From an uncultured Gemmatimonadaceae bacterium (GTDB lineage Bacteria; Gemmatimonadota; Gemmatimonadetes; Gemmatimonadales; Gemmatimonadaceae), in assembly GCA_963790305.1 (NCBI GenBank), contig CAWBOC010000006.1, positions 64,001 through 128,000 of the forward strand: a DNA stretch of 64,000 nucleotides, written 5' to 3'. Each line of letters starts with the position of its first letter. The first letter of the stretch is position 1. The notes under the pieces are model-generated. The model was not told where the DNA came from. It did not search any database and saw only the letters and a list, made by a program, of their open reading frames with translations. Of the stretch, positions 8,954 to 56,108 are shown in pieces. The position numbers were made by a program, and so were the translations under genes.

Positions 8954-10579
8954 ATGGAAATCCGCGACTCGACGGTGCTCCTGCTGGGCGGCGCAGGGCT
9001 GGTTGGCACGGCGGTGGCGCGCCGGCTCGCTCAGCATCAGCCGCGGCGGCTGGTCATTACCGCGCTCACGCGCGCGGAGGCGGAAGCGGGAGTTCGCGAG
9101 CTCGAAGGAGAGTTGGGCGTCCCCGTCGAGGCCCGGTGGGGGAACATCTTCCTGCCCAGCGACCTCGCCGAGCGGAGCCGCGACGATCTCATGCGCGATC
9201 CCGCCGCTCGGCGACGCATGACCGATGACGTGTTCCGCCCGGCGAGCGCGGCCTTCGACGAGAATCTCCTCTTTCAGTGGCTGACGACGATTCGCCCCGA
9301 CGCCGTCGTCGACTGCGTCAACAGCGCAACCGCCCTGGCGTACCAGGATGTCTTCGCGAGCTCGTCGCGTCTGATGGACGCGGCGACGCGCGGAAGTGCG
9401 AGCGTCGAGGAGGTCGAGCGCCACCTGCTGACGCTACCGTTGCCACAGATCATTCGACACATGCAGACCCTGTTCGAGGGACTGCGGCGTGCGGGGACCA
9501 AGGCGTATGTGAAGATCGGGACCAGCGGCACGGGCGGGATGGGGCTGAACATCCCGTACACGCACAGCGAGGAGAAGCCGTCGCGGACGCTGATGTCCAA
9601 GTCCGCGGTCGCGGGCGCGCAGAGCATGTTTCTCTTTCTCATGGCGCGGACGCCGGGTGCACCCGCCACGATCGAGATCAAGCCGACGGCGGTGATCGGG
9701 TGGAAGGAGATCGGCTATGGGCCGGTGCGGCGGGGTGGGCGTCCCGTCGAGCTCGTCGACTGCGAGACGCCAATGCGTGTGGCCGACGCCTTCGCTCCTG
9801 GCGCTGACGGATGGACGAAGACCGGGCGCCACCTCGAGAGCGTCTTCATTAATGTCGGCGAGAACGGCGTCTTCGCGCGCGACGAATTCGAGACGGTCAC
9901 GGCGCTCGGACAGATGGAGCTGGTGACGCCGGAAGAGATCGCCGACGCCGTGATCATGGAGCTCACGGGGCATCCGACCGGGAAGGACGTCGTTGCGGCA
10001 TTGGACGGCGCGACGTTCGGTCCGACCTATCGTGGCGGGTACCTTCGATCGGTCGCCATTGCCGGCCTCCGAGCGCTCGAGGAGCGGCATGGCGTGCGGT
10101 CGGTCGCCTTCGAGATGCTGGGACCGCCGCGACTCACCAAGCTGCTCTTCGAAGCGTACCTGATCGGTCGGCTGTATCCCTCGGTGCGCGCGCTGGCGAT
10201 GGCTGATGCGGACTGCGCGGCGCGCGATTGCGAGCGCCTCGTTCGCGAGACGGAGCCGATGGTGCGGCGGCAGATCCTGTCCGTGGGCATCCCGATCCTG
10301 CTCGCGAATGGCGAGCACGTCCTGCGAGGCGAGAAGGTCGTCGTTCCGCCCGAGGATCGTGGCGCGGACATCGCGTATCGGGGGTGGGTGGACCTGCGGC
10401 CGGCCAATCTGGCGCTCTGGATCAAGCGAGCCGCCGGAATCGCCGCGGTCGAGCCGGACCCGCGAACGGGCTCGAGCGCCCGCTGGACCGCGATCGATCC
10501 GGACGCGCCGATCGAGCCTGCACGCATGGCGGTGTGGGTGTTCGAGGAAGAAGACGAGGGGTATAGGATAAAGCGCTAG
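8954..10579 (+). CDS. Uncharacterised Rossmann-fold (SDR/epimerase-like) protein, 541 aa
   Basis: N-terminal LLGGAGLVG nucleotide-binding motif; long ORF in operon orientation. Confidence 0.7.
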
Positions 10580-10645
10580 AGGCGCTAGAGGCGCTAAAGG
10601 CGCTTGTCTCAGCGCCTTTAGCGCCTCTAGCGCCTTTAGCGCTTT
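10570..10645. repeat. Inverted tandem-repeat element, 9-nt unit GCGCTARAG, 35-bp arms, 6-nt loop
   Basis: AAAGCGCTAGAGGCGCTAGAGGCGCTAAAGGCGCT / AGCGCCTTTAGCGCCTCTAGCGCCTTTAGCGCTTT, one mismatch. Confidence 0.95.
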
Positions 10646-10679
10646 GATACACTGCACCGAACCGTTCACGAGGATCTCA

Positions 10680-11658
10680 ATGGCCACCCGCACCGCCGCC
10701 CCCGCTGCCGACACCGCGCTCGTCCAGGGCATCATCACGCAGGTCGGCAAGCGTGTCGTGGGTCAGGAGTACATGGTCGAGCGCCTGCTCATCGGGCTCC
10801 TCACCGGCGGACACGTGCTGCTCGAGGGAGTTCCAGGGCTCGCCAAGACGCTCACGGTGAAAACGCTGGCCGAGACGATCAGCACCTCGTTTCAGCGCAT
10901 CCAGTTCACGCCCGATCTTCTTCCGGCCGACGTCATCGGGACGATGGTCTTCGATCAGGGCACCGGTCAGTTCAGCGCCAAGAAGGGACCGATCTTCGCC
11001 AACATCATTCTCGCCGACGAGATCAACCGTGCCCCGGCGAAGGTGCAGGCGGCATTGCTCGAGGCGATGCAGGAGAAGCAGGTGACGATCGGCGGAACGA
11101 CGCATCGTCTCGAGGAGCCCTTCCTCGTGCTCGCGACGCAGAATCCCATCGAGCAGGAAGGCACATATCAGTTGCCCGAGGCGCAGGTCGATCGCTTCAT
11201 GCTCAAGCTGCACGTCGGACTACCCCACGCGCGACGAGGAAAAGGAGATCATGCGCCGCATGGCGAGCGGCGATCCGATTCCGGTCCAGCACGCCTCCAC
11301 GCCGCAGCAGGTGCTCGATGCGCGCCGTCGCATCGCCGACCTGTACGTCGACGAGCGCATCATGGACTACATCGTTGACATCGTCCACGCGACGCGCAAA
11401 CCGGAAGAGGCGGGGCTCAAGGAGCTCGCTCCACTCATCGAATACGGCGCCAGTCCGAGAGCCACGATCTTCCTCGCGCAGGGCGCCCGCGCGCACGCCT
11501 TCCTTCGCGGCCGCAACTTCGTGACGCCGGACGACGTGAAAGCCATCGGTCCGGACATCCTGCGGCATCGCGTGCTGACGACGTACGAAGCGGAAGCCGA
11601 GGAAGTCACGAGCGACGTCATCGTCAAGAAGATCCTGGCTGCGATCGAGAGCCCGTGA
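10680..11658 (+). CDS. moxR: MoxR family AAA+ ATPase (apparent +1 frameshift near 11217)
   Basis: [46 protein letters not shown]-terminal GASPRA...LRHR in the next frame. Confidence 0.9.
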
Positions 11659-12683
11659 GCAAGCGCGGAACGGAGCGCGCGGCTGCCGCCACGGCCGACC
11701 GGGGCGACCGCCGGCGCGAGGCGTCGCGCGCGTCGGGGAGCGTGCCGGTCGCGTCGGCCCCACCCGCGCGGGCGCGCACCGCAACATCGGCCCGCGCCGT
11801 TCCACCGGAAGTCTTGCGGCAGGTCAAGCTCCTCGAGATTCGAACACGCGGCCTCGTGAACTCCCTCTTCACCGGCGAGTATCACTCGGTATTCAAGGGG
11901 CAGGGGATGGAATTCGCGGAGGTCCGCGAGTATCAGCCCGGTGATGAAGTGCGCACCATCGACTGGAACGTCACGGCGCGCATGGGCCACCCCTACGTCA
12001 AGCGCTACATCGAGGAGCGTGAGCTCACCGTGATGCTCGCCATCGATCTGTCCGGCTCGGAGCGGTTCGGCACCCAGGCGCGATTCAAGAGCGAGCTCGC
12101 GAGCGAGCTGAGCGCGGTGCTCGCCATGTCCGCGGTGCGCAACAACGACCGTGTCGGCGCTCTGCTATTCACCGACCGCGCGGAGCACGTGGTGCCCCCC
12201 GGCAAGGGACGGCGGCACGTCCTCCGCCTCGTGCGTGACGTGCTCGCCTTCGAGCCCGAAGGGCGAAAGACCGACATTGCCGCCGCCGCCGACTATCTGG
12301 CGAAGATGCTCTCGCACCACACCATCATTTTCCTCATCTCCGACTTCATCGCCCAGAACATCGAGCGCCCGCTCAAGATTCTGGCCCAGCGCCACGACGT
12401 GGTCGCGGTGACCATGGAGGACCCGCGCGAGATCACGCTCCCCAACGTCGGCCTTGCGCGGTTCGTCGATCCGGAGAGCGGCACGACCGTCACGGTCGAC
12501 ACGAGCGACACGGGCGTGCGCAAGGCGTTCGAGGAGATGGCGGGCGCGGAGCGCGCCGAGCGGCGCCGTCTCTTTCGGCGTCTGGCGATCGACGAGATCG
12601 TCGTTCGCACCGACGCGAGCTACATCGAGCCGCTCATGAAATTCTTTCGCGCGCGTGAGACGCGGGGCGGGCGACGCCGGTGA
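11655..12683 (+). CDS. DUF58 family (VWA-like) protein
   Basis: GMEFAEVREYQPGDEVRTIDWNVTAR, DLSGS, ISDF. Confidence 0.92.
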   Translation: MSKRGTERAAAATADRGDRRREASRASGSVPVASAPPARARTATSARAVPPEVLRQVKLLEIRTRGLVNSLFTGEYHSVFKGQGMEFAEVREYQPGDEVRTIDWNVTARMGHPYVKRYIEERELTVMLAIDLSGSERFGTQARFKSELASELSAVLAMSAVRNNDRVGALLFTDRAEHVVPPGKGRRHVLRLVRDVLAFEPEGRKTDIAAAADYLAKMLSHHTIIFLISDFIAQNIERPLKILAQRHDVVAVTMEDPREITLPNVGLARFVDPESGTTVTVDTSDTGVRKAFEEMAGAERAERRRLFRRLAIDEIVVRTDASYIEPLMKFFRARETRGGRRR

Positions 12684-13639
12684 TCGGGATTACCCTGGTG
12701 CTCGTTATGCAGGCCGGGGCGCCGCCACCGGCGCCCGCGGCACAGGAGCAACCTGCTCAGGGGGTTCAGCTGGGCGTCGCCGTTCGTCCCGAGACGGTGA
12801 CCGTCGGCACCCGGTTCATCGTCTCGGCGCGCCTGCGCGCACCCGACGGCGCGACGATCGCCTGGCCCACCGCCCCCGACACCTCGGAGACGATCGAGAT
12901 CGTCAGCTCGCGCATGCTCGATTCCGCGAGCGATTCGCTGCGCACGGAGGAAACGGCTCGCTGGCGGCTCGCCGCTTGGGACACCGGCACGATCACCATC
13001 GTGTTCGAGGATGCGGTCGTGACGGGAATGGACCTCGAGCGACGTGTCCCGCTACGGGCGCACGTATACGTTCGAAGCGTCCTCCCACCCGACACGGCGC
13101 TGCACGTTCCGAAGCCCCCGCGCGACATCATGGCAGCCGATCCGCCGTGGTGGCGCTGGGTGGCGCTCGCGCTCCTCGTGCTCGCGATCATCGGCCTGCT
13201 CCTCTGGTGGTACCTCCGCCGCCGGCGTCGAAAGCCGGCGCCGATACCGGTCGACGCGATGCAGTACGCCGAGCGCGAGTTTACGCGAGTCGAGCGCATG
13301 GGGCTGCTCGAGGCGGGAGAGCGCGGTCGCTTCGTCGCGCTCATGGTCGAGGTGCTCCGGGACTACCTGGCACTTCGCTTACCCGGTGCGGCACCATCGT
13401 TGACGAGCACGGAGCTCATACGCTTCCTGCGATCGCGTTCGGATCTTCCGGTGCAGCGGCTCGCCGCCATCCTCAACGAAGCCGATCTCGTCAAGTTCGC
13501 GCGGCGCTCGGTTACCGGCGAACGTGCCCGCGAGATTGGCCAGGAAGCGCGCACGATTGTTCGTGAGGTCGAGGAGGTTACCGCTCGAGACCGCGCGCTC
13601 GCGGCGGCTGCTGCGGCAGCGGCGGAGAAGGCGGCGTGA
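12680..13639 (+). CDS. Bat-cluster membrane protein (signal peptide, single TM)
   Basis: Lies between DUF58 and batA; TM followed by RRRRRK; ADLVKFA motif. Confidence 0.75.
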   Translation: MIGITLVLVMQAGAPPPAPAAQEQPAQGVQLGVAVRPETVTVGTRFIVSARLRAPDGATIAWPTAPDTSETIEIVSSRMLDSASDSLRTEETARWRLAAWDTGTITIVFEDAVVTGMDLERRVPLRAHVYVRSVLPPDTALHVPKPPRDIMAADPPWWRWVALALLVLAIIGLLLWWYLRRRRRKPAPIPVDAMQYAEREFTRVERMGLLEAGERGRFVALMVEVLRDYLALRLPGAAPSLTSTELIRFLRSRSDLPVQRLAAILNEADLVKFARRSVTGERAREIGQEARTIVREVEEVTARDRALAAAAAAAAEKAA

Positions 13640-14628
13640 TTCGTATCTTCGGGCTCGAGTTCGCGGCCCCATGGGCGCTCCTTCTCCTGCTCGCCATCCC
13701 CGCGTGGTGGCTCTGGCGGCGCCGCCGGCATCGCCCCGCGATCGTGTTCTCCCGTGCCGACGTCCTGGCGCGCGGGCCGCGCGCCGGGCGTGGGATCGCG
13801 CGGCTGCTGGTGCTCCTCCGCGCGCTGGCCATCGGCGCGCTCGTGATCGCTCTGGCGCGCCCTCGCTCGGGAGCGCGTGCGGAGACGATCACCAGCGAAG
13901 GGATCAACATCGTGCTCGTCGTCGATCTGTCGAGCTCGATGCTGGCTGAGGACTTTCAGCCCCAGAACCGCCTCGAGGTCGCGAAGGACGTCGTGAAGCA
14001 GTTCGTCAACGGGCGGCGAAGCGATCGCATCGGGCTCGTCGCCTTTGCTGGCGAGGCGCTCACGCAGACGCCGCTCACCCTCGACTATCCCGTCATCCTC
14101 GCCGCCGTCGATCACCTGCACGCTGGTCTTCTCGAGGACGGCACCGCCATCGGCACGGCGATCGCGACCGCCGCCAACCGGCTGCGCGACGCGCCCGGAC
14201 GCTCGCGTGTGATGATTCTTCTCACTGACGGAGAGAACAACCGCGGCAACATCGACCCGCGCACCGCCGCGCAGGCCGCCGGCGCGTACGGCATCAAGAT
14301 CTACACGGTGGGGGCGGGAACGGAGGGCGTCGCCCCGGTTCCCGTGGGCCGCGGTCTGACGGGACTGCGATACGAGAATCGGCCGGTGCGCATCGATGAG
14401 AAGCTGCTCACCGACGTGTCGCGCACGACGGGTGGGCGCTACTTCCGCGCCCGCGATGCCGCCGCGCTGCAACGGATCTACGAGCAGATCGATCGGCTCG
14501 AGCGCGTACCCGTCACGACGCGCACGTACACGCAGTACACCGAGCAGTACCGGTGGCCTCTTGCCCTCGTGCTCATGGCGATCGCCGCCGAGATGGCATT
14601 GCTCGCCTGGCGGGGCCCGCTGCCATGA
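13636..14628 (+). CDS. batA: BatA-like VWA domain protein
   Basis: N-terminal TM, MIDAS DLSSSM, GTAIG, LLTDGENNRG. Confidence 0.88.
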   Translation: MIRIFGLEFAAPWALLLLLAIPAWWLWRRRRHRPAIVFSRADVLARGPRAGRGIARLLVLLRALAIGALVIALARPRSGARAETITSEGINIVLVVDLSSSMLAEDFQPQNRLEVAKDVVKQFVNGRRSDRIGLVAFAGEALTQTPLTLDYPVILAAVDHLHAGLLEDGTAIGTAIATAANRLRDAPGRSRVMILLTDGENNRGNIDPRTAAQAAGAYGIKIYTVGAGTEGVAPVPVGRGLTGLRYENRPVRIDEKLLTDVSRTTGGRYFRARDAAALQRIYEQIDRLERVPVTTRTYTQYTEQYRWPLALVLMAIAAEMALLAWRGPLP

Positions 14629-16310
14629 TTCCGTACTTCGACATCCCCTGGGCGCTCGTAGCGGCCCCGGCTCTCGCGGTCCTCGTCGCGGTGCTGCTCG
14701 TGGTCGCCTTTCGCAAGCGTCGCCGCCGCCTCGCCGCGTTAGGCCAGGAAGGAATCGTCGCACGCCTCATCCCCTCCTCGGCCACCCGCTCGCCCACCGC
14801 GCGCGTAATCCTGCTCTCGCTCGCGACGATCTTCGCCGGAATCGCGTTCGCCGGCCCGCGATGGGGGACCGAGCGGGCGATCGTGCGCGCGGGAGGGGCG
14901 GACATCGTGCTTGCGCTCGACGCGTCACTCTCGATGCGCGCTACCGATGAGCGCCCCGACCGGCTCGAACGGATGAAACAGGAGGCTCGGCGCTTCCTTG
15001 CCGGCTCGCCGAGCGACCGATTCGGATTGATCGCCTTCGCCGGACGGAGCTACATCCTCACCCCGCTGACGGTCGACAAGGGGGCCCTCGAGCTCTACCT
15101 CGACAATCTCGATCCGAGCGTCGTGGGCCAGGCCGGAAGCTCCCTCGCCCGCGCCATCCGACAGGGAACAGATCTCTTACTTACCTCACGTAGCGGAAGC
15201 GACCGCGCGCTCGTCATCATGAGCGACGGGGAAGCGTTCGAGCCGGAAAGCGACGTCGTCGAGGCTGCCAAGCGGGCCGCCGAGGCTGGAATCACCCTGG
15301 TGACCGTTGGCTTTGGAACACCCGCCGGAGCGACGATCCCCGAGCGGGGCGCGGGAGGGCAGACGTTGAAGCGTGACGAGAACGGAGAGATCGTCGTATC
15401 GCGGCACTCGTCGGAGCTGCTCGAAGCTGCGGCGCGCGCGGCGAACGGTGTCTACATCGCTGCCTCGGCCACCGACAAGGCGGCGAACATTCGCCGCTCC
15501 CTGGCCACGTTGCGGCGTCAGGGCCGGATGGCCCAGGCGGGTGCGGAGCGACGCCCGCAGTTTCAGCTCTTTCTCCTTCCCGCTTTCCTCTGCCTGCTCG
15601 CCGATACGCTGCTTGCGGAGCGCCGAGGCGCCCGACGCCGCGCACCCGCGGCGGCACGCACAGCAGCGACGGCCCTGCTCCTCGCCCTCGCACTCCCGTC
15701 GCGGGCCTACGCCGCTGACACCGAGGGCGACGACCTCTTCCGGGCGCGTCGTTATGCAGAGGCCGCCGAGGCCTATCGCCGGGAGATCATGCGGGGGGAC
15801 CGGTCAGCGCGGGTACAGTACAACTACGGGACTGCGCTCATTCTCGCCGGCCGTGCCGACGAAGCGGTCGAGACGCTGGAGCGCGCCGCCCTTTCCACCG
15901 ACCTCGAGACGCGCTATCGGGCGCTCTTCAATCTCGGGTACATCTTCCTGCAGCGCGGTCGCACACTCGAGGGCGATCCCGCGACGCAAGCGTACGCCGC
16001 GGCGGTGGACGCGTACAAGCGCGCCCTGCGTGCCCGTCCCGATGAGCTCGACGCCAAGTGGAACTACGAGCTCGCGCGGCGACGCCAGCAGTCCTCTGGC
16101 GGCGGTGGTGGTGGGGGAGGTGAGACGCCGGAGCAGGAAGAGGACCCCGTCTCACCCGCGCGAGAACCCATCCCTCGGCCCAGCGGCGGCCTGTCCGAGC
16201 GACAGGCGGAGGCGATCCTCAACAGCGCCGCGCGTGATGAGCAGGAAGTGCAGGGGCGGAAGCAGCGCACGAATCAGCCTGACACGCCGCCGAGGGGGAA
16301 GGACTGGTGA
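14625..16310 (+). CDS. BatB-like VWA protein fused to BatC-like TPR region
   Basis: DASLSM, SDGE; TPR-like YNYGTAL, FNLG, AKWNYELA; C-terminal KDW. Confidence 0.85.
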   Translation: MIPYFDIPWALVAAPALAVLVAVLLVVAFRKRRRRLAALGQEGIVARLIPSSATRSPTARVILLSLATIFAGIAFAGPRWGTERAIVRAGGADIVLALDASLSMRATDERPDRLERMKQEARRFLAGSPSDRFGLIAFAGRSYILTPLTVDKGALELYLDNLDPSVVGQAGSSLARAIRQGTDLLLTSRSGSDRALVIMSDGEAFEPESDVVEAAKRAAEAGITLVTVGFGTPAGATIPERGAGGQTLKRDENGEIVVSRHSSELLEAAARAANGVYIAASATDKAANIRRSLATLRRQGRMAQAGAERRPQFQLFLLPAFLCLLADTLLAERRGARRRAPAAARTAATALLLALALPSRAYAADTEGDDLFRARRYAEAAEAYRREIMRGDRSARVQYNYGTALILAGRADEAVETLERAALSTDLETRYRALFNLGYIFLQRGRTLEGDPATQAYAAAVDAYKRALRARPDELDAKWNYELARRRQQSSGGGGGGGGETPEQEEDPVSPAREPIPRPSGGLSERQAEAILNSAARDEQEVQGRKQRTNQPDTPPRGKDW

Positions 16311-18430
16311 TGCGGCGCCTGTTGGTCGCGGTGGCGGCGTTCGCGCTCGCATGGTCGCCAGGAGCGGCCAATGCACAGCTGCGTACGCGGCGCGATTACT
16401 CCCGGGCGCCGGCGATCACGCGCAATCCGGTGCTCGATACGATCGCGCCAGTGCAGGTCCGCGCGCTGGTTCTTCCCGAGACGGTGTATGTGGGTCAGCA
16501 AGCGACGTATCAGGTGGCAGCGTTTTTTGCCCGAGCGGTTCGCGATCGCGTGCGGCGCCCCGAGTTCTTTGCGCCCGAGATGCGCGGCATGTTGGCCTAC
16601 GAGTCGCCCTCCGATCTTCCCGCCTACACGGTCTCGTCGCGAGGAAAGTCATTCGAGGCCTTCGTCTATCAGCGCGCGATCTTTCCCGTCGCCGCGGGGC
16701 GATTCACGATCCCGCCCGCGCGCCTCACCTATGCGCTGCCACTGACACCCAGCTTTTTCAGTCGCGATGAAAGCTATGAGTCGCGGAGTGACAGCATCGT
16801 GATCGTAGCAATCGACCCGCCCACCGCCGGCCGTCCGCCCGAGTATCAGGGCGCCGTTGGTGCCTTGAGCATCGCTGCCGATCTCGATACCGCCCGTGCC
16901 CGCGTGGGCGATCCTTTGCTGCTTCGCGTACGCGTTGCCGGTGTCGGCAATGTGAAGCTATTGCCGCGTCCCCCGCTTCGAGTCCCCTGGGCGACGGTCG
17001 TCCCGGCCGACGAGCGTGTCACCGTCGCCACCGACCGGGATACGGTGCGGGGAGCCAAGGAATTCGACTGGGTGCTCACTCCGACCCGCCCCGGAATGCG
17101 GACGCTGGCACCGGTGCGCTACTGGTATTTCGATCCGTGGACCGAGAGCTATCAGCTCGCGGAAGCCGCCTCCGATTCCGTTCTGGTGGCGCCGGGAATG
17201 CTTGCGAGCTCCGATACCGGAACGACGGTCATCCCTCCGCTCACCATTCGCACGGCCTACCGCGGGGAGCTGCCGATGCCGCCGCACGAGCGGCGGGAAT
17301 TCTGGCTGCTTCTCGGTCTGGCGCCCATTCCCGCCACGCTGCGGCGCCTGACGAGTCGCCGACGTGCTCGCTCGCGCCCGGAGCTGGTGTCGCGGGATCT
17401 TCGTGCGCTGGCGCGGCAGCGCCGACCCGTGTCCGCGGGTGAGCTGCGACGCGCGCTCGTGCGTGCGCTGGCCGATCGCCTCAACGTGAGCGCATTGACG
17501 CTGTCGTCCAACGGTGCGCTCGCTCGCGTGGCCCGGCGCGCGGGAGTCTCGGCCTCTGTTGCCCAGGAGGCGAATGTCCTCCTTTCCGAGCTCGACCACG
17601 CCGCGTTTGGCGAGGCACACTCGGCGGTGCAGGATCACGCGAAGCGCGCCTGGCGCATCTATCGCGACATCGATCGTGAGGCGCGGTCCCGTGACTCGCT
17701 GCGAGCGACGGTTACCACGCTGCTCATCGGTGGGATGCTGCTCGTCGCCGCGCACACCGCCACCGCGGTGCAGGGAACGGAGCTCGATCCGACGCGCCGC
17801 TTCGCTGCCGGCGTCGCCGATTACCGGGCTGGTCGGTACCTCGATGCGGCGCGCGAGTTCGGCGCGGTCGCCAACGCCGAACCCCGAGCTCCCGACGCGT
17901 GGATGAACTACGGCACCGCGTCGTGGCAGGCGGCGGACACGGCGCGCGCGGTCGTGGGATGGCAGCGCGCCCTCCGTCTCGAGCCCCTCGCCAGCGACGC
18001 GCGCGAAGCGCTCATTCGCGTCGACCTGCCCGTAGACGAGTCGCTCGGCAATGTGCCTCCGCTTCCGGTCGAGGTGCTTGCCCTCGTCGCGGCCTCGCTG
18101 TGGTGTCTGGCCTGGCTCCTCGTCGCGCTTCGCATTCGGCGGTCGGGGGCCACCGCCCTCGCGCTGGGCGGCATTTCACTGTCGGTCGCGCTCGCGGCCG
18201 TGGCCTTCACTGCACACGCCGCTGTCACGGGGCGCGGCCTGGCGGTAATGGACGCGACTGGAGCGCTGCGGATGCTTCCCGCTTTGGCCGCGGAATACGG
18301 CGCGGTCGCCCGCGTCGGTGAGGTCGCGCGCATCGAGGAGCGACGAGGGGACTGGTCGCGCATCGCCCTTGCTGGCGCACGCGAAGGCTGGGTCGAGCAC
18401 GCGCTGTTGGTACCGCTCACGCGCAATTGA
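16307..18430 (+). CDS. BatD-like protein fused to BatE-like TPR/SH3 region
   Basis: Signal peptide, GAVG motif, TPR-like AWMNYG...RALRLEP, C-terminal SH3-like WSRI...EGWV. Confidence 0.8.
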   Translation: MMRRLLVAVAAFALAWSPGAANAQLRTRRDYSRAPAITRNPVLDTIAPVQVRALVLPETVYVGQQATYQVAAFFARAVRDRVRRPEFFAPEMRGMLAYESPSDLPAYTVSSRGKSFEAFVYQRAIFPVAAGRFTIPPARLTYALPLTPSFFSRDESYESRSDSIVIVAIDPPTAGRPPEYQGAVGALSIAADLDTARARVGDPLLLRVRVAGVGNVKLLPRPPLRVPWATVVPADERVTVATDRDTVRGAKEFDWVLTPTRPGMRTLAPVRYWYFDPWTESYQLAEAASDSVLVAPGMLASSDTGTTVIPPLTIRTAYRGELPMPPHERREFWLLLGLAPIPATLRRLTSRRRARSRPELVSRDLRALARQRRPVSAGELRRALVRALADRLNVSALTLSSNGALARVARRAGVSASVAQEANVLLSELDHAAFGEAHSAVQDHAKRAWRIYRDIDREARSRDSLRATVTTLLIGGMLLVAAHTATAVQGTELDPTRRFAAGVADYRAGRYLDAAREFGAVANAEPRAPDAWMNYGTASWQAADTARAVVGWQRALRLEPLASDAREALIRVDLPVDESLGNVPPLPVEVLALVAASLWCLAWLLVALRIRRSGATALALGGISLSVALAAVAFTAHAAVTGRGLAVMDATGALRMLPALAAEYGAVARVGEVARIEERRGDWSRIALAGAREGWVEHALLVPLTRN

Positions 18431-18456
18431 CCGCCTGCGGCAAACGCGCGTAGCTT
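18427..18456 (+). promoter_or_regulatory. Putative promoter for a leaderless mutL transcript
   Basis: TTGACC-18 nt-TAGCTT ending 5 nt before the ATG; no Shine-Dalgarno. Confidence 0.5.
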
Positions 18457-18461
18457 GCTAC

Positions 18462-25914: not shown

Positions 25915-27641
<1,727 letters not shown>

Positions 27642-27646
27642 GACGC

Positions 27647-27729
27647 AGATTGCGGATTGCGGAAGAAACCCCCGGGGCGCTGAGCTCCGGGGGTTTTCGT
27701 TGTAATCCGCAACCCGCAATCCGCAATCT
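27647..27729. repeat. Heptamer (ATTGCGG) inverted-repeat element enclosing a terminator
   Basis: AGATTGCGGATTGCGG ... AATCCGCAACCCGCAATCCGCAATCT; perfect 16-bp outer IR. Confidence 0.9.
27665..27700. terminator. Probably bidirectional intrinsic terminator after groEL
   Basis: AAACCCCCGGGGC-GCTGA-GCTCCGGGGGTTTT between convergent genes. Confidence 0.85.
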
Positions 27730-41007: not shown

Positions 41008-41013
41008 GAGCCG

Positions 41014-44715: not shown

Positions 44716-44812
44716 GCATTCACCACAGAGGCACGGAGGACACAGAGAACGGCAACTGCAAACGTTTTGCAGTTGCCGTTCTCTGTGTCCTCCGTGCCTC
44801 TGTGGTGAATGC
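44716..44812. repeat. Perfect 47-bp-arm palindrome built on 9-nt CACRGAGRR-like units
   Basis: GCATTCACCACAGAGGCACGGAGGACACAGAGAACGGCAACTGCAAA-CGT-exact reverse complement. Confidence 0.97.
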
Positions 44813-44867: not shown

Positions 44868-44896
44868 TTGACTCAATCCGCCGTCCCTCTTACCTT
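44868..44896 (+). promoter_or_regulatory. Sigma70-type promoter of rimP-nusA-infB operon
   Basis: TTGACT-17 nt-TACCTT. Confidence 0.7.
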
Positions 44897-44928
44897 TACC
44901 TCCGTCTCGCCGTGGTCGGGGCGAGTTG

Positions 44929-44960
44929 AATGTGGGGAAGCTCCCCCACATTTTTTGTTT
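44929..44960 (+). promoter_or_regulatory. rimP leader terminator-like hairpin (attenuator)
   Basis: AATGTGGGG-AAGCTC-CCCCACATT followed by TTTTGTTT, between promoter and rimP; position matches the known rimP leader. Confidence 0.8.
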
Positions 44961-44980
44961 CTTGTACCCTGCGATCTTAC

Positions 44981-45439: not shown

Positions 45440-45454
45440 CACTAGGAGTGGTCG

Positions 45455-46795
45455 ATGGTCAGCTCGTCTGACATCCTGAATGCGATTCGCGAGCTCGCGA
45501 ATACGAAGCAGCTCGACAAGGCCGAGCTGCATGGTCTCTTGTCCGACGGCATCTTCGCGGCCCTCGCGAAGAGCTACGGGCCGACCGTGCAGGCGGAGGT
45601 CGAGATCGATGAGGGCACCGGCGACATCCATATCGTTCGCCTGCGCACCGTCGTCGATGGCGTGACCGACGCCAGTCGCGAGATCTCGCTCGAGGAAGCG
45701 AAGTTCTACGACGAGAGCTTCGAGCCGGGCGACGTCATGGAGGATGAGATCGACTTCGCGCAGTTCGGCCGGAACGCCGTCCAGGCGGCGAAGCAACGCA
45801 TCATCCAGCGCGTTCGCGAGCGCGAGCGCACCCGCATTCGCGACGAATTCGCGACGCGCGTGGGCGACCTGCTCTCCGGTGAAGTGCAGCAGATCGAGCG
45901 CGGCAAGCTGGTCGTCATGCTGAACAAGTTCCGCGAGGCGGAAGCGATCATGCCGTATCGCGAGCAGAACCATCGCGAGCACTTCCATCAGGGCGAGCCC
46001 ATCCGTGCGGTGCTCAAGCGCGTCGAGGAGACGCCCAAGGGCCCACGACTCATCTTAAGTCGCGCCGACGGTCTCTTCGTGAAGGCGCTGTTCAAGCTCG
46101 AGGTGCCCGAGATTCAGCAGGGCATCGTCGACATTCGCGCCGTCGCGCGCGAAGTAGGCAGCCGTACGAAGATCGCCGTGTTCTCGCGCGATGACTCGAT
46201 CGACCCGGTCGGCGCCTGCGTCGGGCTCAAGGGCTCGCGCGTGCAGGCCGTTGTGAACGAGCTCGGGGGCGAGCGTATCGATATCGTCCCGTGGTCCTCG
46301 GATCCGGAGCGCTTCGCCAAGCTGGCGTTGGCGCCCGCGCGCATCGCGCGCGTGTTCAGCGACCCTGCGGCGAAGACGATTCAGGCGGTGGTCGACGAGG
46401 ATCAGCTCTCGCTCGCCATCGGCAAGAACGGGCAGAACGTTCGCCTCGCGTCGGAGCTCACGGCGTGGAAGATCGATCTGTACTCCAGCCGCGAATGGCT
46501 GGAGCGCGGTGGCGAGACGCCCTTGTTCGCCCCGCTTCCGGAAGAGGCCGATACGTCGGCGGACGTCAAGCTCTCGGAGATCCAGGGCCTTGGTCCCGCG
46601 ACGGTCGCGGTGCTCGAAGACGCTGGCTATCGCACGCTGAACGACATCATCGACCTCGAGCGCGAGGATTTCCTTCGACTGCCCGGCATTGCTCCGGAGG
46701 AGGCCGATCGCATCATGGCGATGCTGGACGAGCTCACCGAGGAAGGGAGTGGCGAAGAGAACGCCTCACAGCCTGGCGAGGGCACGACGGTCTGA
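45455..46795 (+). CDS. nusA: Transcription termination factor NusA
   Basis: FGRNAVQAAKQ, DPVGACVG, LAIGKNGQNVRLAS, C-terminal HhH-like region. Confidence 0.98.
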   Translation: MVSSSDILNAIRELANTKQLDKAELHGLLSDGIFAALAKSYGPTVQAEVEIDEGTGDIHIVRLRTVVDGVTDASREISLEEAKFYDESFEPGDVMEDEIDFAQFGRNAVQAAKQRIIQRVRERERTRIRDEFATRVGDLLSGEVQQIERGKLVVMLNKFREAEAIMPYREQNHREHFHQGEPIRAVLKRVEETPKGPRLILSRADGLFVKALFKLEVPEIQQGIVDIRAVAREVGSRTKIAVFSRDDSIDPVGACVGLKGSRVQAVVNELGGERIDIVPWSSDPERFAKLALAPARIARVFSDPAAKTIQAVVDEDQLSLAIGKNGQNVRLASELTAWKIDLYSSREWLERGGETPLFAPLPEEADTSADVKLSEIQGLGPATVAVLEDAGYRTLNDIIDLEREDFLRLPGIAPEEADRIMAMLDELTEEGSGEENASQPGEGTTV

Positions 46796-47136
46796 GTGCG
46801 GGAGGACGTCGCGCAGAGAGTGCTTGGCCTGCTGGGTCTCGGAGTCCGGGGGCGACGCGCCGTCGTCGGGGTCGAGAACGTGCGCGAAGCAGCAAAACGC
46901 GGCAAATTGGTGTTGGCGGTGGTTGCGCCCGATGCGTCGCGACACAGTTTGGCAAAGGTGAAGCCTCTGCTCGAGGCGAAGCGGGTACGTATTATTGAAG
47001 GACCGGGTGCGATACAGCTCGGTGGTGCGGTGGGGCGCGACTCGACGGCGGCGGTAGGCGTAGTCGATCGCGATCTCGCGCGAGGCATTGTCGCGATCGT
47101 GGATGGGGCTCCGTCGAGCCCGACAGGAGGTAGGGT

Positions 47137-47140
<4 letters not shown>
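46796..47140 (+). CDS. L7Ae/L30e family RNA-binding protein (YlxQ-like)
   Basis: LGLLGLG...VVG, APDAS, LGGAVGR; between nusA and infB. Confidence 0.85.
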
Positions 47141-49863
<2,723 letters not shown>

Positions 49864-49868
49864 GCCAC

Positions 49869-50150
49869 ATGATCATCGGCGTCGTGTCCTGGGCGCTCCA
49901 CATCGCGGGCGCCCAGTCGTTGAAGGACAAGCGCGGCGTCATCAAGAGCATGAAGGACCGGATGCACAACGAGTTCAACGTGTCGGTGGCCGAGACGGCG
50001 CACCACGACACCTGGCAGACGGCCGAGCTCACCGCATGCGTCGTCGCGGTCGACCGCGTGCACGCCGAGAAGGTGCTCCGTCAGGTGGACCGATTCGTGG
50101 AGAGTAATCCGCTGTGTCGAATTACCGATTCGCAGACGAGCTTCTTGTGA
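49869..50150 (+). CDS. DUF503 (YlxP) family protein
   Basis: [18 protein letters not shown]; between infB and rbfA. Confidence 0.9.
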
Positions 50151-50155
50151 CCGAC

Positions 50156-50257
50156 GTTGTCGAGGTTGTCGAGGTGATCAAGGTGATCGAGGCGACTTCA
50201 CCTTGTTGACCTCGACATCCTCGACACCTCGACGACCTCGACGACCTCGACGACCTC
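50156..50257. repeat. Inverted tandem-repeat element, 9-nt unit GTTGTCGAG / GACCTCGAC
   Basis: Four GTKRTCRAG units, short spacer, then about five ACCTCGACG-like units. Confidence 0.9.
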
Positions 50258-50265
50258 TGAAGTTC

Positions 50266-50646
50266 ATGGCTGACGCCCGCCGCGCCGACCGTGTCGCCGA
50301 AGCCATCCGCGAGGAGGTCGCGACCTTCCTCGCCGATGGCGCCAAGGACCCGCGCATCGTGGGGCTCGTGACCGTCACGGGCGTCGATGTCACGCAGGAT
50401 CTCCGGCACGCCAAGGTGTTCGTCAGCGTGCTGGGCTCCGACGTCGAGAAGAAGTCGACGCTCGAGGGACTGCAGAGTGCGGCGGCTCACCTGCGCTCGC
50501 GGCTTGGGCGGTCGCTGCGCCTGCGCTTCGCCCCCGAGCTCATCTTCCAGTCCGATGCCAGCGTCGCTCGCGCGGCACGCATTGAGACACTCCTCGAGCA
50601 GATTCGCGATGGCCGCGTCCCCGCCGACGAGGAGCCCCTCGACTGA
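50266..50646 (+). CDS. rbfA: Ribosome-binding factor A
   Basis: [36 protein letters not shown]. Confidence 0.96.
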
Positions 50647-51490
50647 GGGGCTCCTGCTCGTCGACAAGCCGGCCGGCATGACGTCGCACGATGTCGTTGC
50701 AATCGCCCGCCGCGCGTTAGGCGAGCGACGGATCGGGCACGCGGGCACCCTCGACCCGTTCGCGACCGGACTCCTCGTGCTGCTGACCGGCCGGACGACG
50801 CGACTCCTTCCGTACCTCGACGGCGAGCCGAAGGTATACGAGGCCCGCATCCAGTTCGGCAGCGAAACCGACACCGACGATGCCACGGGCCGCGTCGTTC
50901 GCGAGGCGCCGCCGCCGATCAGGGCGGACGTCGATCGCGCCATCGCCGCGCTCACCGGCGCCATCGATCAGGAGCCGCCCGCCTATTCCGCCAAGCAGGT
51001 GGGCGGGCAGCGCGCCTATGACGCCGCGCGCCGGGGCGTGCCAGTGAAGCTGCCGCCCTCGCGCGTCACCGTGCATTCATGGGAGGTCAAGGCACGCGCG
51101 AACGACACGCTCGACGCCGTCATCACGTGCTCCGGCGGAACCTACGTGCGCGCGCTGGCGCGCGACCTCGGGCGACAGGCGGCGAGTGCCGCGCACCTCG
51201 CGACCCTTCGTCGAACGCGTAGCGGCCCCTTCCGCGTCGGTGATGCGTGCGCGCTCGACGCATTGCGCGACGGACGCTGCGGCGCCTTACCGCCACTCCA
51301 GGCGCTGACCTCGCTCGCTGTCGAGCAGCTCGACGCAGCGAGTGCCGACCGCGCTGCGCGCGGGAACCTGGTCGATGCGACGGTGATCGGCGAGCAGGCG
51401 GCCCTCGTGGGGCCTAACGGCGAGCTGGTGGCGGTCGCGGTCCGTAGCGGAACGAGTTGGCAGCCGCGGACGGTGCTTCGCGATGCGTGA
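50609..51490 (+). CDS. truB: tRNA pseudouridine(55) synthase
   Basis: [39 protein letters not shown]; start uncertain. Confidence 0.95.
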
Positions 51491-52448
51491 GCGCTTCCAG
51501 GCGTGGGAGGACTCGGGCCTCCCGCCTGATACGCCGGGGACCGTGCTCACCGTCGGCACCTTCGATGGAATCCATCGCGGGCATCTCGACATCCTTCGAA
51601 CGGTTGCGTCGCGCGCCGACGCCTCCGGCATGCGCTCGGTCCTCGTCACCTTCGACCCCCATCCGCTCGAGGTGGTGAACCCGCCCGCCGCGCCCCCGCT
51701 GCTCACGGTCGGGGTCGAGAAAAGCGAGATCGTCGCCGAGAGCGGCGTGGCGTTCCTCGCCGTGCTTCCATTCGATAGGCAGCTCGCCTCGTACAGCGCG
51801 GAGCAGTTCGTCGAGGAAGTGCTTCGACACCGCTTTCTGATGAAGGAGCTCGTCATTGGATACGATCACGGCTTTGGCCGGGGTCGGGAGGGCAACGTCG
51901 ACACGCTCCGCGCCATGGGCGACGCCCGGGGGTTTCAGGTCCACGTGATCGCGCCGGTCTCCGTCTCGGATGGGAGATCGCCGCGGCCGGCGTCGTCCAC
52001 TCTCATCCGGCGCGCCGTCGCGGGAGGGGATCTCGACACCGCCGCCCGCGAGCTCGGCCGGCGGTATTCCGTGAGCGGCACCGTTCGCCCCGGCGACAGT
52101 CGGGGGCGGCTGCTCGGCTTCCCGACGATCAATCTTGGGGCCCCGCACCCAAGGAAGCTTTTGCCGCCCGAAGGGGTATATGCGGTCCTCGTCCAAACTC
52201 CCCGCGGCCCGTTCGGAGGGATGATGAACCTCGGAACACGGCCCACCTTCGGGGACACCACCGTGACGCTGGAGGCGCATCTGTTCGACGCGGATGTCGA
52301 GCTGTACGGAGCGACGGTCAAGCTGGAGTTCGTAGCGCGGCTCCGCGATGTCCGTCGGTTTCCGTCCCCGGACGCCCTGGTCGCACAGCTGCGCACCGAC
52401 GAATCGCATGCACGTCGTGCGTTGACTCTCGTCGCGGCGGGGCATTAA
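51483..52448 (+). CDS. ribF: Bifunctional riboflavin kinase/FAD synthetase
   Basis: GTFDGIHRGH, GRLLGFPTINL, NLGTRPT, LEAHLFD. Confidence 0.96.
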   Translation: MRERFQAWEDSGLPPDTPGTVLTVGTFDGIHRGHLDILRTVASRADASGMRSVLVTFDPHPLEVVNPPAAPPLLTVGVEKSEIVAESGVAFLAVLPFDRQLASYSAEQFVEEVLRHRFLMKELVIGYDHGFGRGREGNVDTLRAMGDARGFQVHVIAPVSVSDGRSPRPASSTLIRRAVAGGDLDTAARELGRRYSVSGTVRPGDSRGRLLGFPTINLGAPHPRKLLPPEGVYAVLVQTPRGPFGGMMNLGTRPTFGDTTVTLEAHLFDADVELYGATVKLEFVARLRDVRRFPSPDALVAQLRTDESHARRALTLVAAGH

Positions 52449-52492
52449 CCTTCATGACTCTCCGCGCTTACATCACCTCTCTCCAGTAGCGC

Positions 52493-54163
52493 ATGAACAT
52501 CAAATCCCGCGTGGCGCTCATCGTCGCGCTGACCTTGGCATCGATCTGGGCGCTCTGGCCGCGCACGATCACCGTCCGGGAGCGCAATCCCCAGACGGGC
52601 GCCGCCGAGTACCGTGAGGTCAAGCGCATCCCGCTGAAGCTCGGTCTCGACCTTCAGGGAGGGATGCATCTCGCCCTCGAAGTCGATGAATCGAAGGGCG
52701 CCGTCGGCGACAAGTCGGATGCGCTGGACCGGGCGCTCAAGGTGGTTCGCAATCGCATCGACCAGTTCGGGGTCGCCGAGCCGGTAGTTCAGCGCGTCGG
52801 CGAGGATCGCATTGTGGTCGAGCTGCCGGGTATCGATGATCCGGAACGTGCGGAAGCGCTCATCAAGACGTCGGCGTTTCTGACCTTCCAGATCGTCGAC
52901 AAGGCGAATTCGCTCGAGCGCGCCCTCCCGCGCATCGACGCCCACCTGAAGGCCCGCAACCTCGACAGGCCGGCGGCACGCGGCGTCTCGGGCGGTGACA
53001 CCGCACGGTCGGGCGGCCTCGCCGACCTCCTCACCCCAAGCAGTGACAGTGGCGCACGCGTCGCTCAGGATTCGGCCACTGCCGATACCGGCCTGCTGTC
53101 CGGCACACGCGACGGCGCGTTCTCGCGCCTGCTGCAGCCGGGCGGGATGCCGGGCGAGTATTTCGTGTCGTTCTCTGACACCGGCCAGGTGGCGCGGTTC
53201 CTCGACATGCCTGAGGTCCAGGCGCTCGTCCCACCCGGACGCGCCATTCGGTGGGGTGCGCTGGACGACAATGCCCGGCGATCTGGATTCCGGCCGCTGT
53301 ACGTGCTCGAGTCGCGCGCGATCATTCGCGGCGATCAGCACCTCAAGGATGCCCGCCCGAACACCGATCCGATCGAAGGCAACCTCGTGTTGTTCGAGCT
53401 CACCAACGAGGGCGGTCGACGGTTCGGCGCGGAGACGGGGAAGCACATTGGGGATAACCTGGCGATCGTGCTCGACGATGTCGTGATGGGCACGCCGCCG
53501 GTCATTCAGGATGTCATTCGCACCCGCGGCCAGATCACGATGCGTGGCAAGCCGCTGCAAGAAGCGCAGGACCTTGCCCTCGTACTGCGTGCCGGCTCGC
53601 TACCCGTTCCGCTCCGCATCATGGACGTGCGGAGCCTGGGTGCAAGCCTGGGTGAGGACGCCATCGAGCAGGGCAAGCGCGCAGGCATCCTCGGCATCGT
53701 GCTCGTCGTGGCGATCATGGTGATCTACTATCGCTTCTCCGGTGTGCTCGCGGTTGCGGGGCTGGTGTTGTATGTGCTGATCACACTGGCCATTCTCGCT
53801 GGATTCGACGCTGCGCTCACGCTTCCCGGCATCGCCGGCTTCGTGCTGTCGATCGGTATGGCGGTCGACGCCAACTTCCTGATTTTCGAGCGAACACGTG
53901 AAGAGCTCGCCCGCGGGAAGACGGTGCGAACCGCCATCAACGAAGGCTTCGATCACGCGCTGAGCGCGATCATCGACACGCACGCCACGACGGCATTGAC
54001 GGCGCTGATTCTCTATCAGATCGGAACCGGTCCAGTGCGCGGCTTCGCGGTGACGCTCATCGCCGGTATTGCGGCGTCGCTGTTCACCGCGGTGTTCGTC
54101 GTGCGCACGCTCTTTCTCATCTGGCTCAACCGCTCGCGCGGCGCCCAAACCCTGAGCATCTGA
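52493..54163 (+). CDS. secD: Protein translocase subunit SecD
   Basis: LGLDLQGG, RIDQFGVAEP, LTLPGIAG, GMAVDAN..IFER. Confidence 0.97.
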   Translation: MNIKSRVALIVALTLASIWALWPRTITVRERNPQTGAAEYREVKRIPLKLGLDLQGGMHLALEVDESKGAVGDKSDALDRALKVVRNRIDQFGVAEPVVQRVGEDRIVVELPGIDDPERAEALIKTSAFLTFQIVDKANSLERALPRIDAHLKARNLDRPAARGVSGGDTARSGGLADLLTPSSDSGARVAQDSATADTGLLSGTRDGAFSRLLQPGGMPGEYFVSFSDTGQVARFLDMPEVQALVPPGRAIRWGALDDNARRSGFRPLYVLESRAIIRGDQHLKDARPNTDPIEGNLVLFELTNEGGRRFGAETGKHIGDNLAIVLDDVVMGTPPVIQDVIRTRGQITMRGKPLQEAQDLALVLRAGSLPVPLRIMDVRSLGASLGEDAIEQGKRAGILGIVLVVAIMVIYYRFSGVLAVAGLVLYVLITLAILAGFDAALTLPGIAGFVLSIGMAVDANFLIFERTREELARGKTVRTAINEGFDHALSAIIDTHATTALTALILYQIGTGPVRGFAVTLIAGIAASLFTAVFVVRTLFLIWLNRSRGAQTLSI

Positions 54164-55164
54164 TGCTGCGCATTCTGCACGATACCAAAGTCGACTTCAT
54201 TCGCCTGTGGCGATGGAGCACCGCGATCACGGCGCTGTTCATCGTGCCGGGACTCATCATGATCGCGATTGCCGGGTTTCGGTACAGTATCGAGTTCACC
54301 GGCGGGACGCTGATGCAGCTCGAGTTCACGACGGCGCCCGATGTCGGTGAGGTGCGCTCGGCGCTCTCCGACGCGGGGATCTCCGGCGCGGAGATCCAGA
54401 CCTTCGGATCGCCGCGTGAGCTCCAGGTGCGTGCGCAGGACGAGCAGCACGTGGAGCAGCAGTCCCTCGGTGCCGAGTCCGTCGCGCAGCGTATCCGTAC
54501 CGCGCTGGATGCGCGGTACGGCGCGAATGCCTACCGCGTGGTGCGAATGGAGGGCGTCGGCCCTCGCGTTGGTGCGGAGCTGCGTCAACAGGCGCTGCTC
54601 GCCATCGTGCTGTCGTTCGCCGCGACGTTGATCTATCTGGCGTGGCGCTTCGAGTGGCGCTTCGGCGTCGCGGCGATCATCGCCACCGTCCACGACATTC
54701 TCGCGACGCTCGCGTTCATGAGGTACATGAACCTCGAGGTCTCACTGTTCGTCGTCGGCGCGGTCCTGACGGTCATCGGCTACTCGCTCAACGATACCGT
54801 GGTGGTGTTCGACCGCGTGCGTGAGAATCTCAAGCTGCAGCGGCGCATGTCGCTCTACGACATTCTCAATCTGTCGGTGAACGAGACGATGCCGCGTACG
54901 GTCATGACCGGCTCCACCACGTTGGCGACGCTGCTCGCGCTGCTCATCTTCGGGGGCGAAGTCATTCGGCCGTTTGCGTGGGTGCTCACGTTCGGTATTC
55001 TCGTCGGTACCTTCAGCTCGATTTTCGTCGCCGGACCCGTGTTGCTCTGGATCGAGCGCAAGTGGCAGCGCCGCGCGGGTGAGAAAGGCGGGGTCTCTCA
55101 TACGCAGCTCGAGCAGTCGGGTGAAAAGAAGCGACGTGACCCGGAGCCTGTGGCCACGCGCTGA
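54163..55164 (+). CDS. secF: Protein translocase subunit SecF
   Basis: IEFTGG, HD, IGYSLNDTVVVFDRVREN. Confidence 0.97.
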   Translation: MLRILHDTKVDFIRLWRWSTAITALFIVPGLIMIAIAGFRYSIEFTGGTLMQLEFTTAPDVGEVRSALSDAGISGAEIQTFGSPRELQVRAQDEQHVEQQSLGAESVAQRIRTALDARYGANAYRVVRMEGVGPRVGAELRQQALLAIVLSFAATLIYLAWRFEWRFGVAAIIATVHDILATLAFMRYMNLEVSLFVVGAVLTVIGYSLNDTVVVFDRVRENLKLQRRMSLYDILNLSVNETMPRTVMTGSTTLATLLALLIFGGEVIRPFAWVLTFGILVGTFSSIFVAGPVLLWIERKWQRRAGEKGGVSHTQLEQSGEKKRRDPEPVATR

Positions 55165-55215
55165 CGCGCCACACCCCCGCCGCCGAAAGGCGGCGGGCGT
55201 GCATCGGAGAGCCGC

Positions 55216-55986
55216 ATGATCGACAGTCACGCGCACCTGGCGGACACGGCCTTCGGGGACGAACGCGACGACGTGCTGCGTCGCGCCCGCGCGGCCGGCG
55301 TGGACGGCATTGTCTGCATCGGGGAGTCGCTCGCCGCGGCGGCTCGCGCGCGAGCGATTGCCGAGTCCAATTCGGGCGTGGTCTGGTGGACCGCGGGCGT
55401 ACATCCACATGATGCGGCGTCCTTCGACGCGCCGCGCGATCTTGCCGCGATTCGCGAGCACGTGAGTGCCGGAGCGGTGGCCGTCGGCGAATGCGGCCTC
55501 GACTACCACTATGACCATTCGCCCCGCGCCCAACAGCGTGCCGCGTTCTCCGAGCAAATCGCGCTCGCCCGCGAGCTTGGCTGTGCCGCGGTCGTGCACA
55601 CGCGCGACGCGGAGGATGACACGCGAGCGATCGTGTCGGATGCCGGTCGTCAGGGCGTGCGTGGCGTGATGCACTGCTTTACCGGCTCTCGCGATCTCGC
55701 TCGGACGGCACTCGATGCCGGCTGGTTCATCTCGTTCGCCGGAATTATCACGTTCAAGCGGTGGACCGATGACGACGTGCTGCGTCTCGTTCCTGACGAC
55801 CGGCTGCTCGTCGAGACCGACGCGCCTTACCTCGCCCCGGTGCCGCATCGCGGGAAGCGCAATGAGCCGGCGTACCTGCCGCTGACGATCGCGCGCCTCG
55901 CCGCCGCACGTGGGTCCATGCCGGAGCGTATCGCGGAGCTGACTGCCGCTAATGCGCGTAGCCTGTTCGGTCTGGCGGGCGAATAG
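55216..55986 (+). CDS. tatD: TatD family hydrolase
   Basis: DSHAH, GVHPH, GECGLDY, HCF, ETDAPYL. Confidence 0.93.
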   Translation: MIDSHAHLADTAFGDERDDVLRRARAAGVDGIVCIGESLAAAARARAIAESNSGVVWWTAGVHPHDAASFDAPRDLAAIREHVSAGAVAVGECGLDYHYDHSPRAQQRAAFSEQIALARELGCAAVVHTRDAEDDTRAIVSDAGRQGVRGVMHCFTGSRDLARTALDAGWFISFAGIITFKRWTDDDVLRLVPDDRLLVETDAPYLAPVPHRGKRNEPAYLPLTIARLAAARGSMPERIAELTAANARSLFGLAGE

Positions 55987-55988
55987 CG

Positions 55989-56108
55989 GAACGACAAAGA
56001 CGTCAGATGTCAGAATGCAGATTTCAGGAACGGCACACGCCCGCCGCGCCACGGGGGGTCATCCGAGCGCTGAATTCTGCACTCTGATATCTGACGTCTT
56101 TGCCGTTC
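55989..56108. repeat. Heptamer inverted-repeat element, 39-bp arms around a 42-nt spacer
   Basis: GAACGACAAAGACGTCAGATGTCAGAATGCAGATTTCAG / CTGAATTCTGCACTCTGATATCTGACGTCTTTGCCGTTC, 4 mismatches. Confidence 0.93.

Follow-up and report, generated by a model that had tools for sequence, protein, structure and literature searches.

Tandem-word hairpins at gene ends in a Gemmatimonadaceae genome and a candidate REPIN/RAYT-like link to small non-transposase genes

Six short inverted repeats at or near stop codons in a 64,000-nt stretch of the genome of an uncultured Gemmatimonadaceae bacterium (the window) belong to five families of hairpins that are dispersed through this genome. We favor, with a probability of roughly 0.55, the explanation that the hairpins and a set of small genes form a two-part system resembling that of REPINs (hairpins made of paired repetitive extragenic palindromic, or REP, sequences) and RAYTs (REP-associated tyrosine transposases), in which the proteins are not transposases and of which the six elements would be gene-less copies. 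Family structure, the presence of one gene per word, the co-presence of gene and word, purifying selection, the reuse of sites, and the mirroring of arms were all observed; we infer the copying step, which is likely a protein-driven copying or rewriting of DNA behind stop codons. The genome under study (G000) is 94% complete, and other G numbers denote genomes of relatives. Hairpin families carry the length of their word in nucleotides as a digit (A7, B7, C9, D9, E7, F9, G9, J9, K7, M7, and O7); a C in front of a coordinate (C5, C6, C7, C9, C10, C12) denotes a G000 contig, and C9 by itself is a hairpin family.

Hairpin families, cargo genes, and reuse of sites

A scan of G000 for strong inverted repeats within 3 kb returned 458, of which 384 overlapped a tandem array. 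The array period was 7 nt in 202, 9 nt in 167, 10 nt in 12, 8 nt in 2, and 11 nt in 1, so the limitation to periods of 7 or 9 claimed in the original prediction was true of most arrays and failed for 15 of the 384. Contig C6 held 20 strong short-range inverted repeats compared to 0, 0, and 0 in three hexamer-block shuffles. Pairing of profile matches gave 494 hairpins in 12 profile families, with a median length of 92 nt and a share of 1.1% of the genome, besides 12 long pairs and 201 unpaired arms; the existence of hundreds of copies is supported, as is the idea that a shared process lies behind the elements in the window. Based on a simple in-house gene caller, among gaps of at least 50 nt, hairpins were present in 111 of the 338 between convergent genes, 163 of the 1375 between tandem genes, and 34 of the 533 between divergent genes. 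Their median distances were 5 nt from a stop codon and 47 nt from a start codon, and 19 of the 327 placed lay inside called genes. A T-tract was present outside the arms of 92 of the 494 hairpins, and GTAG or GTGG tags at 151 of 988 arm ends, mostly where the word itself contains the tag.

Polarity could be assigned for 312 of 327 hairpins, and all 312 had the same orientation, with none reversed. Unit order and inner parts were fixed and family specific, including conserved bodies of about 200 nt in family G9, which argues for dispersed copies and not for local slippage. A model in which slippage and template switching act on ordinary terminators, with no shared origin, would account for the varying number of units, for arms that mirror each other, and for sites where the inner stem is kept while the word changes. 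It is already largely refuted by the family structure, and it also conflicts with the agreement between the words and those of the cassette genes; we consider it extremely improbable. The elements are not the freely written microsatellites of the original picture; they are copies that belong to about ten REP-like families, each of which keeps one unit order and one polarity and is linked to a single gene.

Some elements contain others. G9 elements are nested within E7 or K7 arms at C7:121217-121579, C9:282289, and C10:270957, and an insertion sequence (IS3-like, named from its translation) occupies the loop of a G9 hairpin at C12:2432-3919 and C7:4632-6120, with the same flanks on both contigs and in opposite orientation (an inversion, a strain mixture, or an assembly artifact). 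Contigs of relatives often break off inside hairpins (loci L033-L036, L038, L059, and L060), and short-read assemblies therefore undercount hairpins and may lose cassettes.

The predicted association of such arms with four-helix-bundle or GxxExxY cargo was confirmed by ten genes in G000, and the genome-wide scan that had been proposed thus returned cargo-bearing versions alongside gene-less copies. All six genes matching PF05635/TIGR02436 (four-helix bundle) and all four matching PF13366 (GxxExxY) were in or beside arms, with ten different words, and each of the six PF05635/TIGR02436 open reading frames was within a terminal stem. Some of these cassettes look frameshifted, likely through assembly error, given that moxR and fhs in the window look frameshifted too. 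Of 35 relatives, 31 had PF05635 matches (164 in all) and 26 had PF13366 matches (85 in all). In a set of 90 PF05635 and 50 PF13366 loci of relatives plus the ten own genes, the loci with full flanks exceeded the 95th percentile of the controls (298 genes) for flank pairing in 83 of 91 cases for the four-helix genes and in 31 of 43 for the GxxExxY genes; locus L008 (G015) was excluded from all claims. The four-helix genes are under purifying selection, with ratios of nonsynonymous to synonymous substitution rates of 0.09 to 0.16 in nine groups. The predicted four-helix model had a predicted local distance difference test score of 97 and template-modeling scores of 0.94 to XCC0516 (PDB 2GSC) and 0.81 to Avd (PDB 4DWL). 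The GxxExxY cargo matched PF13366 with an E value of 3e-42, and the acidic and lysine motif residues of a PD-(D/E)XK nuclease were present by eye.

In a quick protein tree with arm-word labels assigned by eye, proteins clustered by arm word. All 15 of the 15 nine-mer-armed four-helix proteins formed one clade (Shimodaira-Hasegawa-like approximate likelihood ratio test, 98), and the nearest neighbor from another genome carried the same word in 46 of 49 cases (shuffle mean, 3.7). As a stronger test, we counted the words O7, M7, J9, and A7 genome-wide in nine congeners, and high counts of O7, M7, and J9 were confined to congeners in which we found the matching gene. There were 78 to 221 O7 matches in five congeners with the gene and 0, 1, 0, and 0 in the four without it; 85 and 49 M7 matches in two with the gene and 0 to 3 in seven without; and 120 to 210 J9 matches in three with the gene and 0 in six without.

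Sites are also reused by other families. From a sample of 40 O7, M7, and J9 hairpin sites (those listed first for G005 and G004), 36 mapped to G000, and 28 of the 36 carried the arm of another family compared to 10.3 expected from matched gaps (P = 1.5e-9). The replacing word tended to stay within one protein clade (8 of 10, P = 3e-4; 5 of 5, P = 0.007). By eye, reuse took three forms: in some cases the word changed while the inner stem stayed, in others the hairpin was replaced as a whole, and in others again one element was nested in another, flanked by relics of the earlier word. All nesting cases were identified by eye, given an automatic count of 0. Among the sites listed, cassette sites of relatives held gene-less hairpins of another family in G000, and A7 and C9 cassettes were found at two different loci, indicating that cassettes move at times.

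Proposed mechanism and competing explanations

In the gene-and-hairpin system that we favor, a small single-copy gene for a four-helix, Avd-like protein or a GxxExxY nuclease-like protein sits within arms of its own 7- to 10-nt word, and the cargo protein would likely bind arrays of that word. Hairpin or cruciform DNA at gene ends may be opened or cut and then repaired with either another copy or the second arm of the same hairpin as the template, and such repair copying would produce replacement, nesting, and in-place changes of word with no target duplication. Families would decay after the loss of their gene, and copies would be tolerated at gene ends, where some may double as terminators. 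A bolder version, which we put forward tentatively, is a widespread, transposase-free replicator in which each word is read by its own Avd-like four-helix pentamer or GxxExxY nuclease, and this protein drives hairpins at gene ends to be copied and overwritten in a self-templated manner.

Several observations weigh against this system. The four-helix gene is the sole cargo in six of the ten G000 cassettes, and no catalytic activity is known for its protein; at C7:189556-189903, a small gene of ordinary appearance (heavy-metal-binding-like by eye) also lies within B7 arms. The match between tree and word is partly simple linkage, given that many same-word proteins are orthologs at one locus; by the host tree, the gains and losses amount to only about 3 to 4 independent events, and the examined set covered 47 of the 49 same-genus PF05635 matches. 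The word A7 fits in part, with 169 to 355 matches where the gene is present and 85, 69, 12, and 0 where no A7 cassette was found. No clean empty/filled junction was found, and the strong reuse of sites could equally mean selection for a hairpin at that site. Two further results speak for the system, with limits. Private variants were mirrored in their own second arm at 0.29 to 0.89 compared to 0.05 to 0.38 after shuffling, and 8 of 10 families exceeded all of their shuffles, a result that is inflated because the pairs were detected by complementarity. Mismatches are without an RNA-stem bias, given that 163 elements between co-directional genes had no G-U excess on the sense strand (G.T 124, A.C 121) compared to terminator-like controls (n = 60; G.T 13, A.C 4; Fisher P = 0.046), a control that is small and weak and in which the T-tract filter may favor G.T.

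A host regulon would account for many of the same data. Under this explanation, the proteins protect, process, or organize transcripts by binding the arrays at gene ends, in either mRNA or DNA, and possibly stand in for RNase III, while the host selects a hairpin at certain ends and the arrays spread passively by gene conversion. It draws on the enrichment at 3' ends seen in the gap counts above, purifying selection on the four-helix genes, a fold in common with Avd (which occurs in a ribonucleoprotein; PDB 8UBE/8UBB), and the finding of no RNase III in 35 genomes of the order. Similar ideas have been published for Geobacter (PMC2700814) and Beggiatoaceae (PMC4679880), and site reuse fits this explanation and the gene-and-hairpin system equally. 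We nevertheless consider a host regulon rather unlikely: the sense strand lacks a G-U excess, few hairpins have a T-tract, the sites are often empty in congeners, Xanthomonas holds both repeats and RNase III, and families drop from about 200 matches to 0 or 1 between genomes that are about 92% protein-identical.

The same RNase III search bears on whether the elements are inserts excised from transcripts, like the intervening sequence (IVS) of 23S rRNA. In Coxiella, a PF05635 (S23p) gene is described in the loop of a tandem-heptamer IVS stem that is cleaved by RNase III (PMC4990558), and the PF05635 cassettes here likewise have their gene in the loop of a stem built from tandem short words. 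The long perfect stems of the window elements are consistent with such inserts. Unlike the Coxiella IVS, the cassettes lie outside rRNA (by eye, none of the six PF05635 genes of G000 has rRNA-like flanks) and have hundreds of gene-less sisters. PF00636 and PF14622 were unmatched in G000, and PF00636 was unmatched in 34 genomes of the same order, whereas the search did match 8 of 14 controls and Xanthomonas. Together with the mismatches, this makes an IVS-like origin very unlikely. RNase III is called highly conserved in a review (PMC3071783). It has possibly been lost throughout this order, a loss that may favor the persistence of long perfect stems in mRNA. Processing hairpins in mRNA, which the original prediction had offered as an option, are likewise disfavored by the mismatch counts (124 versus 121) and the RNase III search, while a role in stability or termination is possible at some sites. 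A T-tract, which in intrinsic terminators follows the hairpin, accompanies 92 of 494 hairpins, and element 3 of the window has an inner terminator-like stem.

In size, palindromy, and position at gene ends, the hairpins resemble REPINs, and they could be ordinary REP-like elements or miniature inverted-repeat transposable elements moved in trans by an HUH or IS transposase or a reverse transcriptase, in which case the small genes would be passengers. The elements nested whole in others and the IS3-like element inside one are consistent with such movement, and of 5 congeners, 3 had Y1_Tnp matches and 2 had reverse transcriptase. The RAYT-type transposase (PF01797) had 0 matches in G000, G003, and G004, however, and reverse transcriptase (PF00078) had 0 in these three and in G008. 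We did not observe target duplication around 22 copies of G9 (direct-repeat flank score of 9.0 compared to 8.95 shuffled), the only family used for this test given that the others are without sharp ends; outer-flank complementarity of G9 was weak (13.3 compared to 11.5 shuffled, with a maximum of 14.5). The passenger model predicts neither one gene per word nor co-presence, and we regard it as improbable.

Relation to known repeat systems

REPINs are described as extragenic hairpins of about 100 nt that occur in hundreds of copies and decay without their gene, and the RAYT gene as single copy, mostly vertically inherited, and flanked by its own repeats (bioRxiv 10.1101/2021.07.10.451892). We observed the same combination: extragenic hairpins number in the hundreds, and the repeat that they carry also flanks a single-copy gene. 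Unlike REPIN-RAYT pairs, no HUH/Y1 transposase was found in G000, the partner proteins belong to PF05635 or PF13366, the arms are tandem 7- to 10-nt words and not short palindromes, ten gene-word pairs share one genome, and old sites are rewritten. The tetranucleotide tag of REP sequences is of the GTAG type, and no such tag characterizes the arms here. The pairs in G000 would thus work like REPIN-RAYT, and by transposase and by tag they fall outside that group.

Similar words are known from other phyla. The Xanthomonas GGGAATC and Nostoc heptamers are reported as intergenic arrays, often in inverted pairs, that lie near the upstream gene and are rare between divergent genes; the accessible text interprets them as G-quadruplex motifs and names no partner gene (PMC4692102). 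Intergenic heptamer arrays, inverted pairs, and a gene-end bias are features of our hairpins as well. In three Xanthomonas genomes, we found one PF05635 gene each, close to XCC0516 and enclosed by arms of the GGGAAT type; repeats with this word are the subject of that report. The Dokdonella soli homolog (L389) has GGGAAT arms as well, as an independent pair. Geobacter metallireducens is described as having paired tandem 7- to 8-nt sites on opposite strands in several lineage-specific families (PMC2700814), and Beggiatoaceae as having lineage-specific tandem sites of the heptamer TAACTGA (PMC4679880). These resemble our families of tandem sites and, unlike them, are interpreted in those reports as binding sites of regulators, IHF/HU or RNA-binding proteins. 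The four-helix cargo is predicted to have the fold of XCC0516 and of Avd from diversity-generating retroelements (PMC10053308); unlike those retroelements, G000, G003, G004, and G008 had no reverse transcriptase match.

Subscription papers and supplements aside, we found no publication that ties PF05635 or PF13366 genes to genome-wide word hairpins. The tests of the present analysis concern the co-presence of gene and word per genome, the reuse of sites, the strand bias of mismatches, and the absence of RNase III matches. PF05635, for which structures have been available since 2006, and GxxExxY are both large and without an assigned job, which the favored system would give them, and intergenic heptamer repeats are abundant and have been described for years without a cause. 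If the favored system is right, it would be a second REPIN-like system on unrelated proteins; about 1% of the genome would be shaped by it, as would the ends of core operons (groESL, rbfA, fhs). Under the bolder version, the gain, loss, or change of one tiny gene would rewrite the repeat vocabulary of a genome, which would explain heptamer repeats across bacterial phyla and offer a programmable word-reading scaffold. Ten gene-word pairs stand side by side in one genome, and congeners add natural gains, losses, and overwritten sites.

The six elements of the window and their sites

All six inverted tandem-repeat elements were real and present where they had been predicted (no strand is assigned to any of them):

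Element 1, 10570..10645, gene-less hairpin of the 9-mer family C9, word GGCGCTAGA
Element 2, 25915..25969, decayed hairpin of the 7-mer family E7 (TCAGAAT) in the groES-groEL gap, right arm intact
Element 3, 27647..27729, 7-mer arms of family B7 (ATTGCGG/ATGCGGA) enclosing a GC-rich terminator-like stem
Element 4, 44716..44812, perfect 47-bp hairpin of the 9-mer family F9, word CACAGAGG, in the pgeF-rimP gap
Element 5, 50156..50257, hairpin of the 9-mer family D9, word GTCGAGGTT, in the DUF503-rbfA gap
Element 6, 55989..56108, hairpin of the 7-mer family E7 (TCAGAAT) in the tatD-fhs gap

Five of them rank with the six longest inverted repeats (or sub-matches of these) in a listing for the window:

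I1, 44716-44812 (47 nt, 100%)
I2, 55989-56108
I3, 10570-10645
I4/I14, 50152-50249
I5, 27645-27717

None of the six elements itself contains a PF05635 gene. The best-scoring cassettes for elements 1 to 6 were C9, E7, B7, F9, D9, and E7, with a small margin for B7 (14 versus 10). Counterpart cassettes are at C9:787676-788209 for element 1 (with a PF05635 gene inside), C9:163271-163785 for element 2, C10:203200-203840 for element 3, C5:638.8-639.5 kb for element 4 (with a GxxExxY gene inside), and C7:227884-228415 for element 5. That the units differ and do not form a single REP was correct to the extent of five families, with elements 2 and 6 sharing one. RNA folding z-scores for elements 1 to 6 were -12.4, -2.0, -7.6, -17.8, -8.7, and -10.0; 0 of 200 shuffles folded as well for five elements and 9 of 200 for element 2, whose weak fold is due to its decayed left arm. 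A lone D9-like arm at 7267-7289, inside a called gene, is weak (15 bits) and probably due to chance.

The predicted position, on or within about 35 nt of a stop codon, was also accurate. Element 1 spans the stop codon (10577-10579) of a gene for a 541-aa Rossmann-like protein, and upstream stops are 16, 5, 34, 5, and 2 nt before elements 2 to 6. A MoxR-type ATPase gene, named from its sequence given weak AAA matches only in an NCBIfam search, lies downstream of element 1; this gene (10680-11658) and fhs (56146-57833) are each split across two frames, likely by assembly indels. The elements had been described as mostly inside housekeeping operons, and five lie between co-directional genes. Element 3 separates the convergent groEL and a metallo-beta-lactamase-fold gene, and element 4 is not plainly operon-internal, given that a promoter-like TTGACT (by eye) follows it.

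Comparison of orthologous spacers, including the three named in the original prediction (groES-groEL, DUF503-rbfA, and tatD-fhs), revealed empty or differently filled alleles in relatives. The groES-groEL gap had the same family, E7, at 7 of 7 same-genus loci, with fuller alleles in congeners, and by eye no such arm at 22 loci of other genera. G025 (L029), which had 0 PF05635 or PF13366 matches, carries a different, non-tandem palindromic repeat after groEL. At the site of element 3, G004 and G008 have other words around a similar inner stem. The tatD-fhs gap has a 34-nt empty allele in G002 and other families in other congeners, and the pgeF-rimP gap is empty in G003 and G006. The DUF503-rbfA gap is empty in G011 (10 nt) and G017 (14 nt) and holds other words in further congeners; in seven congeners, the word agrees by eye with the genome's own cassette. 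The best public sequencing runs shared at most 0.28 of words (contigs only), and mapping of four runs to groES-groEL returned, for the most part, conserved stretches of groEL from other organisms, which were uninformative on processing.

An Rfam scan of the window matched only the selenocysteine tRNA at 59309-59401 (RF01852); the six elements, all between protein genes, had no Rfam match. A short hairpin at about 44930-44960, ATGTGGGG...CCCCACAT with a T-run, lies just upstream of rimP and likewise had no Rfam match. It was kept in 26 of the 26 relatives shown (L086-L111, by eye) and is possibly an attenuator or leader of the rimP operon.

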